A stretch of 64,000 bases of DNA from positions 160,001 to 224,000 of the forward strand of contig CAVWEH010000005.1 of the NCBI GenBank assembly GCA_963753975.1. The letters are read 5' to 3'. The number at the start of each line of letters is the position of its first letter. The stretch's first letter is position 1. A model generated the notes under the pieces. The model saw only the letters and a list, made by a program, of their open reading frames with translations, did not search any database and was not told the DNA's origin. This DNA is from an uncultured delta proteobacterium (GTDB lineage: Bacteria > Desulfobacterota > Syntrophia > Syntrophales > Smithellaceae). A program made the translations under genes and the position numbers. Shown piece by piece: positions 1-7,284 of the stretch.

Positions 1-3000
1 CGGCGGCGTGCGAAGTACCTCCCCCTCTTGCCGTCAAGAGCCCATCGACCTGCAAAAGCACGCCGACATCATCAGGAACGGTATCGCGACGAATCAAAAT
101 GAGCGGTGTTTTCGGCTCGGCTGAGCGAAAATGCTTAATGTCCGCTTCAGAGTAAACCGCCCTGCCGCAAAGAGCGCCACCGCTTACCCCTATACCTGTT
201 CCCAACACGGAAGACTGTAAAACCTCGGTATCTATAAAGCGCTTCAATCTTTTTGCCGTTATTTGATCCATATCCCGTGTTTGCAGGATATATAACCTGT
301 CCCTGCTTGTACCTTCAAAGGTAAATTCTATTTCCTGATGGTTAAGGCCTTTCTCATAAATCAAAATTTCAGAAATTTTTATCAGTTCATCGTAAATCTC
401 CGGAAATTTAGCTTCCAGAGATATTTCCATGTCTTTGCGTTCTGCTAAACGCTGTTTTTCCGAAATAGGATAAGTTTCCACCAGGCCGGAAACAATATCG
501 TCCCCCTGAACACCAAATATAAAATCTCCATAAATGGTCACCGCGGATGACGAGCTTTTAGGTTCGCGGGTAAAAATAACGCCCGATCCCGAGTGCTCAT
601 TGAGATTTCCAAAAACCATCGTCTGGACAATTACCGCTGTTCCCCATTTATCCGAAAGATGCATCTGGTGACGATAAATTTTCGCCTGCTCGGAATACCA
701 GGAGTCAAAAACTTTGAGAATAGCGTGCCGTAACTGTTCCAGGGGATCGTCTTTAAGCACGATACCACTATTTAATATGCCTTTCTTATACGTAAGAGCT
801 ATCTGTTTCATTTGACCGGGAGAAAACCGCAGCTTTCTTTCCACGCCGTATTTTTGCTTGAATCCGTCTATTATCGCATCGAAAAAATCCCGGTTTAATC
901 CCTGATACATACCCCATGTCTGCAAAAACCGCCGATATGAATCCCATGCCGCCCATTGAAAATCTTCTTTAGCGCTGAGATTTTCGGCAATCGTTTCGTT
1001 AATCCCAACATTTAAAAAAGAATTCATCATACCCGGCAGAGAAACAGTGGCACCGCTTCTTACCGATAACAGCAGAGGGTTGTGCGGATCACCGAATTTG
1101 CGCCCGGTCATTTTCTCTAATGTGGATATTTCTCTATTTATCCTGGCGGCAAGATCGTTAAATATATACTTATAGCCGATAACGGCATCATAACCTCTGA
1201 ATACTTCCGTGGTGATGATAAATCCGGGGGGCACATGAAAACCAAAAGATACCAGCTCTTTGAGGAAATATCCCTTGTTCCCGAGAAGGATCTGATTATC
1301 AACCCGTTTATTCTTCTTATAGAAGGAGGAAACAGCAAGTTCCGGATTATAGGACATGACCAGTTTAAGAATCTGTTTATTGTCTTTAAATCTTTCCAGC
1401 TCCTCATTAAGGGTATTGATGACCGCGTTAACGAAATTGTCCAACACTTGAAGACCGAAGGCGGAGGATATTATCCCTCTGATGAAATTTTCCGATTGTT
1501 GGTACACGGTTTCTTCATGATTTTGAATTTCGTCTTTTGTATCGGCCTCAGTTTTTTGCCGGGTAATTTGCCCGATAATAACAGGCAGGTTGGAGCTGTG
1601 AGCGTCTATGTAATAATCACGGATAATATCCTGTATGCCCTTGGCGATAAAGCGGAAGATATCGACATATTGTTCGATAGAAAACTGCTTGATGGCCAAG
1701 GCGCTGGTTACGTATTTGACTTTGGCCACCAAACCTTCCGTAGAAATTCCTTCCAACTCCAGAGCGCTGATATAGAGCCACAAATAGGCGTGAATCTTGA
1801 CGATGGTGCGTTTAGTAATGAATTTGAGGTTTAGCGACCGGGCCAGCTCCTCTAGAAGCATCGTGGCCAGGCTCTCCAAGCGGAGCGAAAGGCCGAGAGC
1901 GTCAAATTTCTCTTCATTGTAGGTCCCATACATCGACGGTATTCCTGCCGCAATGTGCCTTTTGTAATATATGTTTTCAAAAGGTTGGGTTTTTTGGCCA
2001 GAGAGAATCTTTTCCTTCAATACGGATAAAAATTTCATTATGATTGTAAGACTTTTGTAGTTATTTCTTGCGCCCAGAGCGCGTTTCAGCGCCATGATCT
2101 CGGATTTCTGGAAAGGATGAACCGATTCCAGGTCTTTCAATAAATCGACATACAGGGGAAAATATTTTTTATAAAGAAGCTGATAAATGCGGATCATGAG
2201 CCGGGTGCGCTCTTTATCTCTTTTATTAATGCCTTTGACATTATTGATCTCTTTTTGAACCTTTGCTTGATCCCATTCGATCAATTTCCGTGGATTATCC
2301 TGAGCCGGCGAAAGCAAATATTTAAAGGCTTTGTGCATTCCGTCAAAATATTCCCCGGAGTTTACTACTTGTTCAAACACCTCGTCAGGAAGATGTTTGC
2401 GGACAAATTCCTTTTCGCCGGAAAACCAGTATTGGAAAATGTTTTCCATAAATTCCACAAGGAGGCTGTTACTCTCTACGTGGGATTGTTTGCGCAGAAA
2501 GTTGATCAGTTTATCGTTACGGTAAGAAAGTTCGTCCACTTCGGTGGAAATGTCCCGCAATTCGCCTTCGGCGCCGATTTCGCTGAAATAAACAGGGAAT
2601 ATTCTGAGGAGCTGTTTTATCAGATTGTATGCCGAAGCTATATCGGAATTGAGCAGGGCGGAAATATCCTTTTGCAGGAGGTCTGTATCCCGCACAAAAA
2701 TTCCCCCGATATTTAGATTGATAATCAGGGCGGAAACGAGCTTCTTTGTCCAGCGGGGTTTCATCGCGATAATCTCGAGCCATGATCTTATGTTGACAAT
2801 ATGCGTCGGATTGACCTGCACCTGCCATTCGGTCGTCGTCCCTTTAACTTCCGGATATTGAAAACCGTAAGAAATAAGTTCGTCAATAAATGTATCCGCA
2901 AGGGAGTGAGAGTTTTGATCGAATACTTCCTTAGCCGTCGTCGTGATGCAATCGATAATGGAGCCCCGGTATTCATATTGCGATCTGCTCTTTTTCAGAA

Positions 3001-4042
3001 AGCCGAATACCTTGCGCACAAAATCGTTGAGGTTTTCCTTTTTTTCCTGCTGAAAGACTAATTTCAGACAACGGTTTATTTCTCGCAGAGCGCTGCCGTG
3101 GATATCGGAAAGACCGGGTACGCCCATGATACTGAACAGAAAGTCCAGTTTCACCAGATACTGGCGTCCCTGATAAGCCGGGAATTTCTCCAATTGATCG
3201 GCAACTAAAAAATATCCGTTTACTATTTGAAAGTAATCCGGCAAATCAAGGTAATCCTTCGTTTGCAGAGCGCCTTTCTTTTGTCTGTCCGGATGAAGAG
3301 TTTCCATCTTCGTAAGCAGCATCTGAATATGCCGGTGGCTCAGGGGCTCAATAATTTGCCTGTAAGCATCAGCCGCTTCCCCGGTTTCTCCCCCGCCTTT
3401 CGTATACCATCCGGAAGGATCAGGCTGGGTAAGCCAGAATTGGTATGTAATTTTGAACATCTTATAGAGTAAAAGATCGAATATTTCAGCGTGAAGAGGC
3501 GTGTCATTTTCTAGCAGGAACTTGACGGTTCTTTTGAGGTAAGCCGAGCATTTCTTGAATATGGCTGCATCCTCATCCGATATTCTGATCAGCGATTCTA
3601 TGATCTCGGAAAACAGGGCTAGGTTTCTGGAAATAAATTCGTTGCTTTGAGAAATTATCGTGTCAATATAATCGAAAAGATAGTGTATCGCGCTGTCTCT
3701 GATCTCATCGCTTGAAGAAAATTTAATAACATCGAAGTATATCTTAAGTAATATGGAAAGGGCGGATAGTCCGTCTTTATGCCTGTTGTACTCGTAGAAA
3801 TCGCCGATGGAAAGGGATTTCAGCTCCTGGAGAACATATTCCCAGTTAACGAAAGGATGGTTTAACTCTGTCAGCAGTTCCCGTGTTTTTTTCTGCAGGC
3901 CGTAATGCTCTTCTACAACTTTAAGCAGAGGGGCATACTGTTTGGGTATTTCTATGGCTACTGCCGTCCTCTCCAAATTCACCTTAAGAGCGGACGAAAC
4001 CCAGCCTTCATTTTTTTCAATGGTGCTATTTTTCGCCTTCAT
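1..4042 (-). CDS. Large pyruvate phosphate dikinase-like protein (PEP/pyruvate-binding domain plus His swivel domain), runs off the left edge; missing from the ORF track
   Basis: Segments translated by hand: start MKAKNSTIEKNEGW at 4042; NPLLLSVRSGATVSLPGMMNS (~1020-1080); GTAVIVQTMVFGN; phospho-His motif GLLTARGGGTSHAA at the window edge. Frame continuity not checked codon by codon. Confidence 0.85.
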   Translation of the reverse strand, partial: MKAKNSTIEKNEGWVSSALKVNLERTAVAIEIPKQYAPLLKVVEEHYGLQKKTRELLTELNHPFVNWEYVLQELKSLSIGDFYEYNRHKDGLSALSILLKIYFDVIKFSSSDEIRDSAIHYLFDYIDTIISQSNEFISRNLALFSEIIESLIRISDEDAAIFKKCSAYLKRTVKFLLENDTPLHAEIFDLLLYKMFKITYQFWLTQPDPSGWYTKGGGETGEAADAYRQIIEPLSHRHIQMLLTKMETLHPDRQKKGALQTKDYLDLPDYFQIVNGYFLVADQLEKFPAYQGRQYLVKLDFLFSIMGVPGLSDIHGSALREINRCLKLVFQQEKKENLNDFVRKVFGFLKKSRSQYEYRGSIIDCITTTAKEVFDQNSHSLADTFIDELISYGFQYPEVKGTTTEWQVQVNPTHIVNIRSWLEIIAMKPRWTKKLVSALIINLNIGGIFVRDTDLLQKDISALLNSDIASAYNLIKQLLRIFPVYFSEIGAEGELRDISTEVDELSYRNDKLINFLRKQSHVESNSLLVEFMENIFQYWFSGEKEFVRKHLPDEVFEQVVNSGEYFDGMHKAFKYLLSPAQDNPRKLIEWDQAKVQKEINNVKGINKRDKERTRLMIRIYQLLYKKYFPLYVDLLKDLESVHPFQKSEIMALKRALGARNNYKSLTIIMKFLSVLKEKILSGQKTQPFENIYYKRHIAAGIPSMYGTYNEEKFDALGLSLRLESLATMLLEELARSLNLKFITKRTIVKIHAYLWLYISALELEGISTEGLVAKVKYVTSALAIKQFSIEQYVDIFRFIAKGIQDIIRDYYIDAHSSNLPVIIGQITRQKTEADTKDEIQNHEETVYQQSENFIRGIISSAFGLQVLDNFVNAVINTLNEELERFKDNKQILKLVMSYNPELAVSSFYKKNKRVDNQILLGNKGYFLKELVSFGFHVPPGFIITTEVFRGYDAVIGYKYIFNDLAARINREISTLEKMTGRKFGDPHNPLLLSVRSGATVSLPGMMNSFLNVGINETIAENLSAKEDFQWAAWDSYRRFLQTWGMYQGLNRDFFDAIIDGFKQKYGVERKLRFSPGQMKQIALTYKKGILNSGIVLKDDPLEQLRHAILKVFDSWYSEQAKIYRHQMHLSDKWGTAVIVQTMVFGNLNEHSGSGVIFTREPKSSSSAVTIYGDFIFGVQGDDIVSGLVETYPISEKQRLAERKDMEISLEAKFPEIYDELIKISEILIYEKGLNHQEIEFTFEGTSRDRLYILQTRDMDQITAKRLKRFIDTEVLQSSVLGTGIGVSGGALCGRAVYSEADIKHFRSAEPKTPLILIRRDTVPDDVGVLLQVDGLLTARGGGTSHAA

Positions 4043-4232: not shown

Positions 4233-4268
4233 TTGACAAATGCAAATATAGTTGTATCATACAACTAT
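4233..4268 (+). promoter_or_regulatory. sigma70 promoter (TTGACA-16-TATCAT) overlapped by a perfect 10-1-10 inverted repeat; likely MarR operator
   Basis: TTGACA 4233-4238, TATCAT 4255-4260, ATAGTTGTAT-C-ATACAACTAT 4248-4268 overlapping the ATG at 4267. Confidence 0.75.
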
Positions 4269-4746
4269 GACCAAAGAGATAAATGTAAATTATACTCAAT
4301 TAATGGAATTATTCACCGGCCTTTCCCAGGTGACCCGCTGCTGCCGTCAGGATGAGGCTTTTTGCGAAGACGTGACGTTTCACCAGTTTATGATATTGGA
4401 CGCAGTGGCAAAGCACAAAGAACTGAATATGTCCGACTTGCACAAGCATCTTTCCGTCGAAAAAAGTACGACCACCAGACTAGTCACCCCCTTGATTAAA
4501 AAAGGTCTTTTACAACGTGATCAGGCCCCACACGATTCCCGAGCAGTGACGCTTACTTTGACAAAGGAAGGCAGAGATGTCCACAAAAAAGTCTCGTTGT
4601 GTCTGAGTGATTTTTTCCGCAAGGTTATGGGCAATATTCCGGAGAAAAAAGCGGATGTTGTTTTGGAATCCGTTAAGACTTTTATTACGGCTATAAAAAA
4701 TTATGCACGAGAATGCAGTTGCTGCAAATCACGCGGGTTAGGTTAG
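4267..4746 (+). CDS. MarR-family transcriptional regulator with Cys clusters
   Basis: wHTH signature LSVEKSTTTRLVTPLIKKGLLQR...DSRAVTLTLTKEG; RCC-x6-C near the N-terminus and CSCC at the C-terminus. Confidence 0.9.
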   Translation: MTKEINVNYTQLMELFTGLSQVTRCCRQDEAFCEDVTFHQFMILDAVAKHKELNMSDLHKHLSVEKSTTTRLVTPLIKKGLLQRDQAPHDSRAVTLTLTKEGRDVHKKVSLCLSDFFRKVMGNIPEKKADVVLESVKTFITAIKNYARECSCCKSRGLG

Positions 4747-4750
4747 CGCT

Positions 4751-5905
4751 ATGGACAAAATTGAAAATAGTTCCCGAGATATGATTACACTGCCGGTAAT
4801 TATGCCGGAGTCAACATGTTGTGTCACCGCACAAACGGCTCAGTATCCTCTTCCTCGCTTGAATCAAGCTTTTATCACCGGTTCTATCTCCACAGCTGCA
4901 GGCAACCTGCCCAGAGTATCTTCAACCTTGAGTTGGCAGGATCATTGGAGAAGCATTAAAGCCCGCTGGGGAGTCGACAGAATGGATTATGCTGTTGACC
5001 CCGGTCTTTATGCTCTTGGTAATCCCGATAGCAATTCCCCTGTTTTAGTTACCGCCAATTACAAAATGAGTTTTGACCGCTTGCGGGAAGCTCTGCCGGG
5101 CAGAAATACATGGATTCTGGTGCTGGACACAAAAGGAATAAACGTCTGGTGCGCCGCGGGAAAAGGTACATTCGGTACGGACGAATTAATCAAAAAAATA
5201 GAATCAAGCAGACTGAAAGATATTGTCAGCCACAGAAAATTAATTATTCCTCAGTTGGGAGCGCCCGGAGTAGCCGCTCACAAAATAAAACAGGTCTCCG
5301 GATTTAAAGTCTATTACGGTCCGATACGGGCAGCCGACGTGCCAGCTTATCTTGATGCCGGACTTATTGCCAGCTCTGAAATGCGGATAATGACATTCCC
5401 CTTAAGAGAAAGAGTCGTCCTGATTCCCATCGAGCTTATAGAAACGATAAAACCTTTTTTAATCATCGCGCCCATTTTGTTTTTACTTGGCGGTATAGGA
5501 GGCCACTCGGGCTTCTGGGTAAACACATTGAATTATGGTTTGTTTGCCGTTTTAGCATTTTTAAGCGCTATTTTGGGAGGAGTTGTTATAAATCCACTTC
5601 TTCTGCCTTATCTTCCCGGGCGCGCGTTTTCCATAAAAGGTTTTTCCATTGGTGTAGTTATCGCCCTTATTCTTCTTTACTTACGCGATATTAATTTACA
5701 GGCATGGCCTGGCAGAATCGAGGCTTTGGCCTGGCTAATGATAATTCCAGCCATATCTGCATACCTGGCAATGAATTTTACCGGAGCCTCAACTTACACT
5801 TCTCTCTCCGGTGTCAAGAAAGAAATGCGCTGGGCATTGCCGCTGGAAATAGCCGCGAGTGCTTGCGGCCTCTTAATATGGATAACATCACGCATAATTG
5901 CCTAG
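4751..5905 (+). CDS. hgcA: Mercury methylation corrinoid protein HgcA
   Basis: Cap-helix motif GINVWCAAGKGTFGT, PVLVTANYKMSFD, C-terminal TM helices ending YLAMNFTGASTYTSLSGVKKEM; ferredoxin gene immediately downstream. Confidence 0.97.
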   Translation: MDKIENSSRDMITLPVIMPESTCCVTAQTAQYPLPRLNQAFITGSISTAAGNLPRVSSTLSWQDHWRSIKARWGVDRMDYAVDPGLYALGNPDSNSPVLVTANYKMSFDRLREALPGRNTWILVLDTKGINVWCAAGKGTFGTDELIKKIESSRLKDIVSHRKLIIPQLGAPGVAAHKIKQVSGFKVYYGPIRAADVPAYLDAGLIASSEMRIMTFPLRERVVLIPIELIETIKPFLIIAPILFLLGGIGGHSGFWVNTLNYGLFAVLAFLSAILGGVVINPLLLPYLPGRAFSIKGFSIGVVIALILLYLRDINLQAWPGRIEALAWLMIIPAISAYLAMNFTGASTYTSLSGVKKEMRWALPLEIAASACGLLIWITSRIIA

Positions 5906-5915
5906 GAATTTAAAA

Positions 5916-6246
5916 ATGAAAAATTCGCTTTACCTGAAAAATGTCGTTACCCTGAAGCTTAATGAAGATAAATGTACCGGCTGTGGCATGTGTCTGGACT
6001 GTTTGTCCTCATAAAGTTTTTAAAATGAATGAAAAGCACGTGATCATTCAAAACCGAGACGCCTGTATGGAATGCGGCGCGTGCAGTAAAAATTGTCCGG
6101 CTGATGCTATTTTCGTCCAATCCGGTGTCGGCTGTGCTGCCGCCGTTATCAATTCCCTGCTGGGGCGTAGCAGCGGTGAGTGTTGCTGCGGCACTGAACC
6201 CGTGGGCGCGACAACCGATAAACGCAGCGGATGTTGTTGCGGATAA
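5916..6246 (+). pseudogene. hgcB: Mercury methylation ferredoxin HgcB with a +1 frameshift near 5996-6000 (real lesion or sequence error)
   Basis: Frame from 5916 reads MKNSLYLKNVVTLKLNEDKCTGCGMCLD then stops at 6012-6014; the next frame continues VCPHKVF...CMECGACSKNCP...GCCCG*. Confidence 0.9.
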
Positions 6247-6279
6247 AATATTTCATGAAATCCTGAATTAAGTTCTCTT

Positions 6280-6999
6280 ATGCAAAAATATTGGGGATAC
6301 GTAATAATTTGGCTTTCGTATATTTTAAGCGGCTCATCGTTGATCGCCTTTGCTGTTTTTCTTTATGCCGGGCGTTTAGATTTGTCCAATCTAGGATTAA
6401 ATGAACATCAGGCGCTTTTGTTTAATGCCGGACTTTCGCTCGCCTTTTTCATTCAGCACAGTGGAATGGTTCGTCGATCATTCCGACAATTTCTATTCCG
6501 GTTTTCGCCGGAAGCATATAACGGCGCCATCTATTCAATCACTTCCGGAATTTTTCTGTTCTTAGTGGTCATTTTCTGGCAGGGAACATCTGTTTTGTTC
6601 GAAGCCGAAGGTATAACCCGCTTCCTCTTGCGTGTAGTTTTTATTTTTTCTATTGCCGGATTTGTCTGGGGAATCAAGGCGCTGGGCTTTTTTGATCCTT
6701 TTGGTATAGAAGCGGTATTAAATCACTGGCCGGACAGAAACCCTCAGCCGGCAGCTTTCACGGTGCGAGGCCCTTACCGCTGGGCACGGCATCCCTTATA
6801 TTTATTTGTATTGGTGATGATTTGGTCATGTCCGCAACTGACTGCGGACAGATTGCTTTTTAATATTTTCTGGTCGGCATGGATTTTTTTCGGCACCCTG
6901 CTGGAAGAACGCGATTTGGTCGAACAATTCGGTGATGCCTATCGAGACTATCAGCAGAAGGTGCCAATGCTTTTTCCGTTTAAATTCATCAAGAAATAA
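6280..6999 (+). CDS. ICMT/NnrU-family membrane methyltransferase resembling methanethiol S-methyltransferase MddA
   Basis: Multi-TM protein with FFIQHSGMVRR, GPYRWARHPLY, LEERDL, YRDYQQKVPM motifs. Confidence 0.75.
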   Translation: MQKYWGYVIIWLSYILSGSSLIAFAVFLYAGRLDLSNLGLNEHQALLFNAGLSLAFFIQHSGMVRRSFRQFLFRFSPEAYNGAIYSITSGIFLFLVVIFWQGTSVLFEAEGITRFLLRVVFIFSIAGFVWGIKALGFFDPFGIEAVLNHWPDRNPQPAAFTVRGPYRWARHPLYLFVLVMIWSCPQLTADRLLFNIFWSAWIFFGTLLEERDLVEQFGDAYRDYQQKVPMLFPFKFIKK

Positions 7000-7008
7000 T
7001 CGCCGAAC

Positions 7009-7284
7009 TCAAATGAATGAAACATTATGAGTCACGGATGTAACCAGAAAACAGCGTTCGATGTTCGACTTTGTATCTACCGGCACAACGAAGAATCCCG
7101 GGTGGTTCGGATGGTGGCCATGAGCCGTGCCGACCATTAATTCCCCGTCTTTGAAGACTACCTTGAGCTCGGTCGTACGTAATTCCAACGCTTTGCTGCC
7201 GGGCGCGACATTTGCAGGAAGCAGATGAAAGAGATCCTTGTCGGGGAAGAAGTCGTTAGCGATACACTTCATCATTGACACCAT
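7009..7284 (-). CDS. Small hypothetical protein, possibly truncated
   Basis: ORF with KVVFKDGELMVG...GFFVVPVDTKSNIERCFLV, similar to a deltaproteobacterial domain of unknown function. Confidence 0.45.
   Translation of the reverse strand: MVSMMKCIANDFFPDKDLFHLLPANVAPGSKALELRTTELKVVFKDGELMVGTAHGHHPNHPGFFVVPVDTKSNIERCFLVTSVTHNVSFI

Follow-up and report, generated by a model that had tools for sequence, protein, structure and literature searches.

A probable MarR-headed hgcAB operon with an MddA-like methyltransferase gene in a Smithellaceae-like bacterium, and its links to arsenic gene neighbourhoods

Control of hgcAB by ArsR has been published for Pseudodesulfovibrio mercurii ND132 (bioRxiv 10.1101/2022.10.17.512643). 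Gene neighbourhoods in which hgcAB is found with ars genes have been described (PMC7438021, PMC10349881), and the hgcAB-arsenic theme, comprising ArsR control and ars neighbours, is likewise in print (PMC10504345). Within the MarR family the closest described protein is AdMarR_ars, an arsenite sensor that uses Cys36, Cys37 and Cys157 (bioRxiv 10.1101/2021.08.12.456183). Here we analyse a 64,000-nt stretch of contig CAVWEH010000005.1 (the window; all coordinates are window positions), in which hgcA and hgcB are preceded by a gene for a cysteine-rich MarR-family regulator and followed by a gene for an MddA-like membrane methyltransferase (MT). For two isolates a MarR has previously been mentioned upstream of hgcA, with neither an operator nor a ligand in the text available to us (PMC10349881). 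A 'putative transcriptional regulator' has been noted upstream of hgcAB in 112 genomes, no family being named in the accessible part of that paper (PMC7438021), and these may include the present MarR. Neither the native role of hgcAB nor its control has been settled, and on both the locus offers a regulator-operator pair and an accessory enzyme. Our tentative reading, to which we give a little less than an even chance, is that arsenite induces the unit as a methylation operon, in which the fourth enzyme would methylate the sulfur of sulfide or of thiols.

The features of the locus are itemized in Table 1. The four genes are co-directional on the forward strand and are separated by gaps of 4, 10 and 33 nt, as the initial annotation had described. 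A scan of the region gave two terminator-like hits, neither of them inside a gap between the four genes. Of the sigma-70-like sites in the region the strongest, with 11 of 12 matches, is at 4233-4260, in agreement with the earlier assignment of one promoter before the operon. The number of such sites in the region is at the level of chance (7 found against 6.1 expected), and the promoter is called because the site is conserved across loci, not from the site count. The -10 box ends 6 nt before the marR ATG, so that the message is probably leaderless; from the sequence, a single leaderless transcript of all four genes is very likely. The initial annotation overlooked the perfect 21-bp inverted repeat that overlaps the -10 box, and the MarR dimer is predicted with high confidence to bind this palindrome and block the box.

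Table 1. Promoter elements, operator and genes of the marR-hgcA-hgcB-MT locus (window positions)
Feature	Position	Strand	Description
-35 box TTGACA	4233..4238	+	TTGAC(A) at equal distance in marR-bearing loci
-10 box TATCAT	4255..4260	+	16 nt from -35 box, 6 nt before marR ATG
Perfect 21-bp inverted repeat	4248..4268		Core GTTGTAT-N-ATACAAC at 4251-4265; overlaps -10 box; likely MarR operator
marR	4267..4746	+	Cys-rich MarR-family regulator, 159 aa; PF01047 47.8 bits
hgcA	4751..5905	+	Corrinoid methyltransferase, 384 aa, intact; NF040863 470.6 bits, cut-off 275
hgcB	5916..6246	+	Ferredoxin, frameshifted in assembly, one extra base near 5999
MT (fourth gene)	6280..6999	+	Membrane methyltransferase (ICMT superfamily) resembling MddA; 239 aa; 'clade I'; NF045656 134.5 bits

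The operator goes with this regulator. In 110 hgcA loci it is found (with 0-2 mismatches) in those that have this marR, and in none without it. The palindrome core at the marR site is its sole perfect copy in the genome; a genome scan found one further copy with a single mismatch, near an intergenic edge on contig C6, and three with two mismatches. A wider regulon was considered and, on these counts, rejected. Metagenomes were scanned for the palindrome core followed by an ATG, giving 120 listed loci of ~660, of which 117 were analysed. Among the matches listed, 34 of the analysed loci encode a strong match to this MarR family, and of the 18 strong-match loci with enough downstream DNA 17 lead into hgcA and one into arsM (L232, 352 bits against a cut-off of 263). 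The same palindrome is present before genes for Cys-poor MarR proteins on four AT-rich metagenome contigs (L160, L199, L222 and L224), so the operator alone is no proof of a metalloid sensor. The gene that follows in these four contigs is presumably MutY-like, a label taken from its motifs.

The cysteine residues of the MarR lie at positions 25, 26, 33, 112, 150, 152 and 153, and Cys33, Cys112 and Cys152 are invariant in 19 orthologues. Among 129 representatives of the wider family there is a cysteine at column 33 in 109 and at column 34 in 38, and 107 have a C-terminal cysteine. When aligned with ars-linked MarR proteins of the Bacillota, Cys33 falls on the first residue of their CC pair, with Cys152 and Cys153 following 119-120 residues onward. 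Kin of the MarR are found inside ars-gene operons, with arsM in L232 and with arsN1 in L113 and L114; here the MarR heads hgcAB. The arsM-linked protein of L232 and the present MarR fall in one clade (99/100) of a tree rooted with only two generic outgroups, both of them long branches. Three of 51 plasmid-borne relatives were inspected (23-30% identity). One precedes arsN1, another precedes a permease amid arsN1, arsR and an arsenic transporter, and the last precedes a permease and has a near-copy of the operator; two of the three sit among ars genes. From its sequence the MarR likely works in the manner of MarR_ars, and it is somewhat probable that the protein is released when Cys33 and the C-terminal cysteine pair bind As(III) or a comparable soft metalloid. 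A distant MarR-like gene (26% identity) also precedes hgcAB in another locus (L307, G214:C1:592000-611000), with an MT gene related to clade II ~11 kb away.

The host genome (G000) is 2.43 Mb in six contigs, 95% complete and Smithellaceae-like, and the nearest named HgcA records (85-87%) are from Smithellaceae metagenome-assembled genomes. The genome search of hgcA neighbourhoods covered one phylum. The order marR-hgcA-hgcB-MT is found in all 13 hgcA-positive genomes of the genus, including G000, with MT orthologues (52-86% identity) directly after hgcB. Elsewhere in the family a different, ~205-aa member of the MT family (30-35% identical) directly follows hgcB in six of the 20 other hgcA-positive genomes, and in one more it lies ~2.3 kb away. 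In G179, which belongs to another family, the order is marR-hgcA-MT-hgcB with the same operator. There a third MT lineage is inserted between hgcA and hgcB, with the reading frames overlapping or very close. A second clade-III gene was sought in the family of G179 and not found, G179 alone giving a close match among 35 genomes. In a 38-row tree the hgcAB-linked MT genes belong to three lineages with good support, all of which also have sisters away from hgcAB; the MddA sequences form a fourth branch. Monophyly of the linked genes is rejected (approximately unbiased test, p = 7e-39), and the MT family has been recruited beside hgcAB at least three separate times. Seventy-four genome loci extend 1 kb or more past hgcB; MT is present in 10 of the 34 with this marR and in none of the 40 without it, a comparison that is no statistical test because the loci are kin.

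The best family match of the fourth protein, over its full length, is to NF045656 (MddA), with 134.5 bits against the equivalog cut-off of 270. It also weakly matches the ICMT, PEMT and NnrU profiles, reaching 24.5 bits against 160 on the ICMT equivalog NF040696. NF045656 is matched above cut-off in none of 61 relative genomes and in one of 301 genomes of the phylum. MT is 32.6% and 31.3% identical over ~190 residues to two MddA proteins that exceed the cut-off, taken in place of ratified enzymes; at least 40% identity to ratified enzymes has been used as the criterion for accepting a match as MddA (PMC6524544). The QHSGM..R and RHPLY motifs that had been pointed out in the fourth protein are present. 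It shares the invariant H-S, RHP, EE and Y..Y motifs with a RefSeq-named MddA, and keeps the residues that are invariant across MddA and the three hgcAB-linked lineages. The RHP-x-Y and EE...Y..Y motifs of the ICMT/Ste14 superfamily are invariant in the MT alignment.

In a tree of 38 rows (LG+G4; 27 of 65 rows were left out, including long-branch rows and the ICMT outgroup) MT groups with MddA (99/98), and within this group clade I (16 rows, 100/100) and the MddA clade (3 rows, 97/99) are separate branches at an unresolved fork. The predicted structure of a congener MT (predicted local distance difference test score 85.6) matches Ma-ICMT (4a2n) with Z 6.8 and a root mean square deviation of 2.4 over 116 aligned. 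The five best structural matches of this model are all relatives with the ICMT fold, at middling Z scores of 5.9-7.7, and Foldseek returned no match for it at E <= 0.001. Judged by its sequence, the fourth protein is MddA-like and is not MddA, because it scores below the cut-off and belongs to a separate clade. The initial annotation had placed the gene near MddA, and had named a position outside the MddA clade as one of three findings that would speak against its proposal. MddA is indeed the best match; membership of the family does not follow, and MT lies outside that clade. It would therefore be unsafe to count 'MddA' matches of ~130 bits in anaerobes as genes for dimethylsulfide formation unless they have been tested.

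The genomic surroundings of unlinked MT genes lead back to arsenic. Among the 32 listed clade-I loci that are not linked to hgcAB (further loci exist), acr3 or arsM lies within 1.5 kb of MT in eight; the background is 1 of 655 equal tiles of G000 and 0 of 100 of the congener G011. The arrangement hgcC-MT-arsM occurs in four of the listed genomes, all from one family; a search of 10 genomes of that family found no hgcA. There are three loci with acr3-MT, and one in which MT is divergent from hgcC-arsM. In four loci MT follows ArsR and small Cys-rich or membrane genes, in one it precedes an ArsN-like gene that scores below cut-off, and three adjoin C-GCAxxG-C-C genes. HgcC is listed by NCBIfam as 'HgcAB-associated protein' (NF040962), so clade-I MT genes stand under three types of regulator (MarR, ArsR and HgcC) that also accompany hgcAB. 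These neighbourhoods tie both the MarR family and the MT family to arsenic and thiol operons, in agreement with the metal(loid)- or thiol-responsive setting that the initial annotation had suggested.

Some observations on these operons stand apart. In L358-L361 (G316, G290, G234 and G340) and in L363 (G461) an arsM operon starts with the gene for HgcC, which scored 115-117 bits (cut-off 70) in the three of these that were scanned. HgcC may be a metalloid regulator rather than one specific to hgcAB, since such arsM operons occur in the family in which hgcA was not found. A cassette of arsR, a gene for a small Cys/Met-rich protein and a gene for a small LiaI/LiaF-like membrane protein is found in L135, L139, L148, L147, L390 and L391. 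It carries either a clade-I or a clade-II MT, so that here too, as beside hgcAB, one of these lineages can take the place of the other. No arsM was found in the G000 genome, and among 36 family relatives arsM is present in two and hgcA in 32. Across 61 relative genomes arsM exceeds the cut-off in six of the 18 in which hgcA was not found and in two of the 43 with hgcA. The two genes are possibly complementary in their distribution, although the genomes are kin and so not independent.

An arsenite-inducible operon would work as follows. The MarR would repress its own leaderless four-gene message through the palindrome over the -10 box. Binding of As(III), or of another metalloid with affinity for thiols, to its cysteine residues would release it and turn the operon on. 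HgcAB would take a methyl group from S-adenosylmethionine (SAM) and pass it to a metal(loid) thiolate, setting the thiolate free. This follows the reaction proposed for HgcAB with mercury (PMC11588087), with a metalloid put forward as substrate on our part. By analogy with MddA, which methylates H2S and methanethiol and can detoxify both (PMC11445057), MT, predicted to be a membrane enzyme dependent on SAM, would methylate sulfide or thiol sulfur, either to remove it or to exert a pull on thio-metalloid chemistry. The parts of this scheme differ in strength. The gene neighbourhoods make it probable that MT is functionally tied to metalloid detoxification, and the unit likely evolved for arsenic-like substances rather than for mercury. 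The analogy with MddA, by which MT would act on H2S, methanethiol or thio-metalloid sulfur, has close to an even chance of holding. A bolder form of the scheme, in which HgcAB would stand at the centre of a pathway for metalloid methylation, inducible by arsenite and taking the place of ArsM, with MT a new kind of thio-metalloid methyltransferase completing that pathway and mercury methylation a side reaction, we consider unlikely.

Several observations weigh against an arsenite-inducible methylation operon. The MarR has a glutamate where the ars-type CC pair has its second cysteine, and the clade that unites it with the ars-linked proteins of the Bacillota is weakly supported (71/85). The operator is unique as a perfect copy, and the ars operon of the genome has its own ArsR. 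Half of the listed unlinked clade-I loci (16 of 32) are without any ars or thiol marker that was probed. The MT reading frame is broken in two of the 13 congeners (G011 and G012). In a phylum sample of 301 genomes hgcA is present in 91 and an NF045656-like gene in 53, but only 3 of the 91, G179 among them, have both side by side; the recurrence of marR and an mddA-like gene beside hgcAB, which the initial annotation had proposed to survey, is complete in the genus and does not hold in general. The arrangement in G179 is found in 1 of 23 hgcA genomes of its family, and two of its congeners have an unrelated C-GCAxxG-C-C gene in the same place (L328:1641-2120 and L336:2463-2948), so the slot between hgcA and hgcB accepts other cargo. 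Lastly, purified HgcAB is methylated by SAM with no further enzyme (PMC11588087), from which it follows that MT is dispensable for that step.

Much of this would be expected if MT were a passenger, a general methyltransferase of thiol or redox stress that settles downstream of whichever promoter is Cys-sensing and is biochemically unconnected with HgcAB. The unmarked loci, those adjoining C-GCAxxG-C-C genes, the other gene in the G179-type slot, the broken frames and the fact that most hgcAB loci are without MT all point that way. On the other hand, three unrelated lineages have come to adjoin hgcB or hgcA, in these data only with this MarR, and MT has been kept across the genus despite the drift of its orthologues to 52-86% identity; we regard a passenger as improbable. 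Marginally less so is direct methylation of As, Se or Te species by MT, in series with ArsM or replacing it. The hgcC-MT-arsM and acr3-MT arrangements and the scarcity of arsM in this family are in its favour. It remains unlikely in our view, given that the closest characterised relative acts on sulfur and that the MT alignment has no conserved ArsM-type set of cysteines. MT and arsM moreover co-occur, so MT is no plain substitute for ArsM. A membrane partner that loads the methyl group of SAM onto the cobalamin of HgcA, a role that has been suggested for methyltransferases adjoining HgcA-like proteins or fused to them, is very improbable. HgcA does use SAM, NCBIfam lists a corrinoid protein-associated methyltransferase (CpaM), and the close fit of the G179 MT between hgcA and hgcB would suit such a role; these are set against the sufficiency of SAM alone for purified HgcAB, the clade-I genes in genomes where hgcA was not found and the many hgcAB loci without MT.

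The state of the hgcAB genes themselves bears on whether the operon is functional in this strain. The initial identification of hgcA is upheld by a score far above the cut-off (Table 1). The HgcA translation carries NVWCAAGKG, in agreement with N(V/I)WCA(A/G)GK, which we take to be the HgcA cap-helix motif; a selenocysteine form of HgcA was ruled out, the ORF having no in-frame UGA. The initial annotation listed hgcB among the four genes and overlooked a frameshift in it. Over its 331 nt the first frame ends after 32 residues, and the second 4Fe-4S motif lies in another frame. The C-terminal piece scores 86.3 bits on NF040864 (cut-off 99), and the orthologue of a congener (L031) scores 125.5, above the cut-off. 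The extra base near 5999 is missing from all nine aligned congener loci. Twenty-four sequencing runs were listed for this sequence, none of them an RNA run and each with a share under 0.1. Contigs from four of the 24, which represent relatives rather than the source reads, were compared at this position; related contigs in two of the four are without the base and none is listed as having it. As a control on frame, 305 ORFs were taken from 400 kb of the congener G011, of which 238 have a scorable orthologue in this assembly. A change of frame is seen in 16 of the 238, which shows indels to be frequent across the genome. Given the congeners, the run contigs and the frame changes elsewhere, the frameshift is most probably an error of assembly. 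The alternative is that it is real, and that the operon of this strain is decaying. In the genus hgcB is intact in 10 of the 12 other genomes and broken in 3 of 13 when G000 is included, and among 30 relative loci it is broken in four, never twice at one position. Together with the broken MT frames this may be a sign that selection has relaxed, and it is a point against a functional unit. The neighbouring convergent gene is also shortened. Decay is nevertheless quite improbable in view of the comparisons above, the intact state of marR, hgcA and MT, and the form of the lesion itself. The sequence reads GA-C-T where relatives have GAT, as if two synonymous Asp alleles had both been written.

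The convergent gene that follows the operon (7009-7284, reverse strand) belongs to DUF6982 and encodes 91 aa, compared with 117-156 aa in most congeners, with the middle part missing. It is absent from the corresponding place in G010 and G011. On the other side, a large divergent PPDK-like/PEP-utilising gene (1-4042, reverse strand; >1340 aa) extends past the window and flanks marR in all congeners. A separate ars operon in the same genome (G000:C4:248713-254549) contains arsR, a thioredoxin-like gene, a permease gene, an arsC-like gene and acr3, and several of its genes are split by frame changes in the assembly.

As a separate line of genomic evidence, the locus supports the idea that mercury methylation is connected with arsenic-sulfur chemistry. 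Relatives of MT have changed places among operons of hgcAB, arsM and acr3, and among regulators of the MarR, ArsR and HgcC types. Smithella has been reported as the dominant hgcA-expressing deltaproteobacterium in bog samples (PMC7438021). With that, and with hgcA present in 32 of the 36 family relatives, the nature of the inducing signal matters for where methylmercury is formed. A full-text literature search, which left most subscription journals outside its coverage, found no paper that joins hgcA with mddA or isoprenylcysteine.

Comparison with the known systems places the locus as follows. With ICMT/Ste14 (Ma-ICMT, 4a2n, and Tribolium ICMT, 5vg9) MT shares the C-terminal cofactor-binding motifs (phmmer E 1.3e-4) and the fold, whereas its N-terminal half is unrelated in sequence. 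It differs from MddA in scoring half the cut-off, in forming its own 100/100 clade, and in occurring in anaerobes beside hgcAB or ars genes. The MarR shares with AdMarR_ars of Achromobacter deleyi As-55 the MarR fold and a cysteine of the N-terminal loop with another ~120 residues on, and like it is probably autoregulated; kin of the present protein lie upstream of arsM, arsN1 and ArsP-like permease genes. In contrast to MarR_ars it has one cysteine at the aligned CC position, Cys25/26 and Cys112 are additional, and the genes that follow it are hgcAB where MarR_ars has arsV; the founding member was compared by its published cysteine positions only. The arsR2-hgcA-hgcB operon of ND132 likewise has a Cys-bearing regulator directly upstream of hgcAB, but the regulator here is of the MarR type with a palindrome of its own. 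The published hgcAB-ars neighbourhoods similarly associate hgcAB with arsenic genes, but here the accessory gene encodes a membrane methyltransferase of the ICMT fold, and is not arsM, acr3 or arsC. The locus is thus real; it varies the hgcAB-arsenic theme within a limited lineage and brings to it a new family of accessory enzyme.

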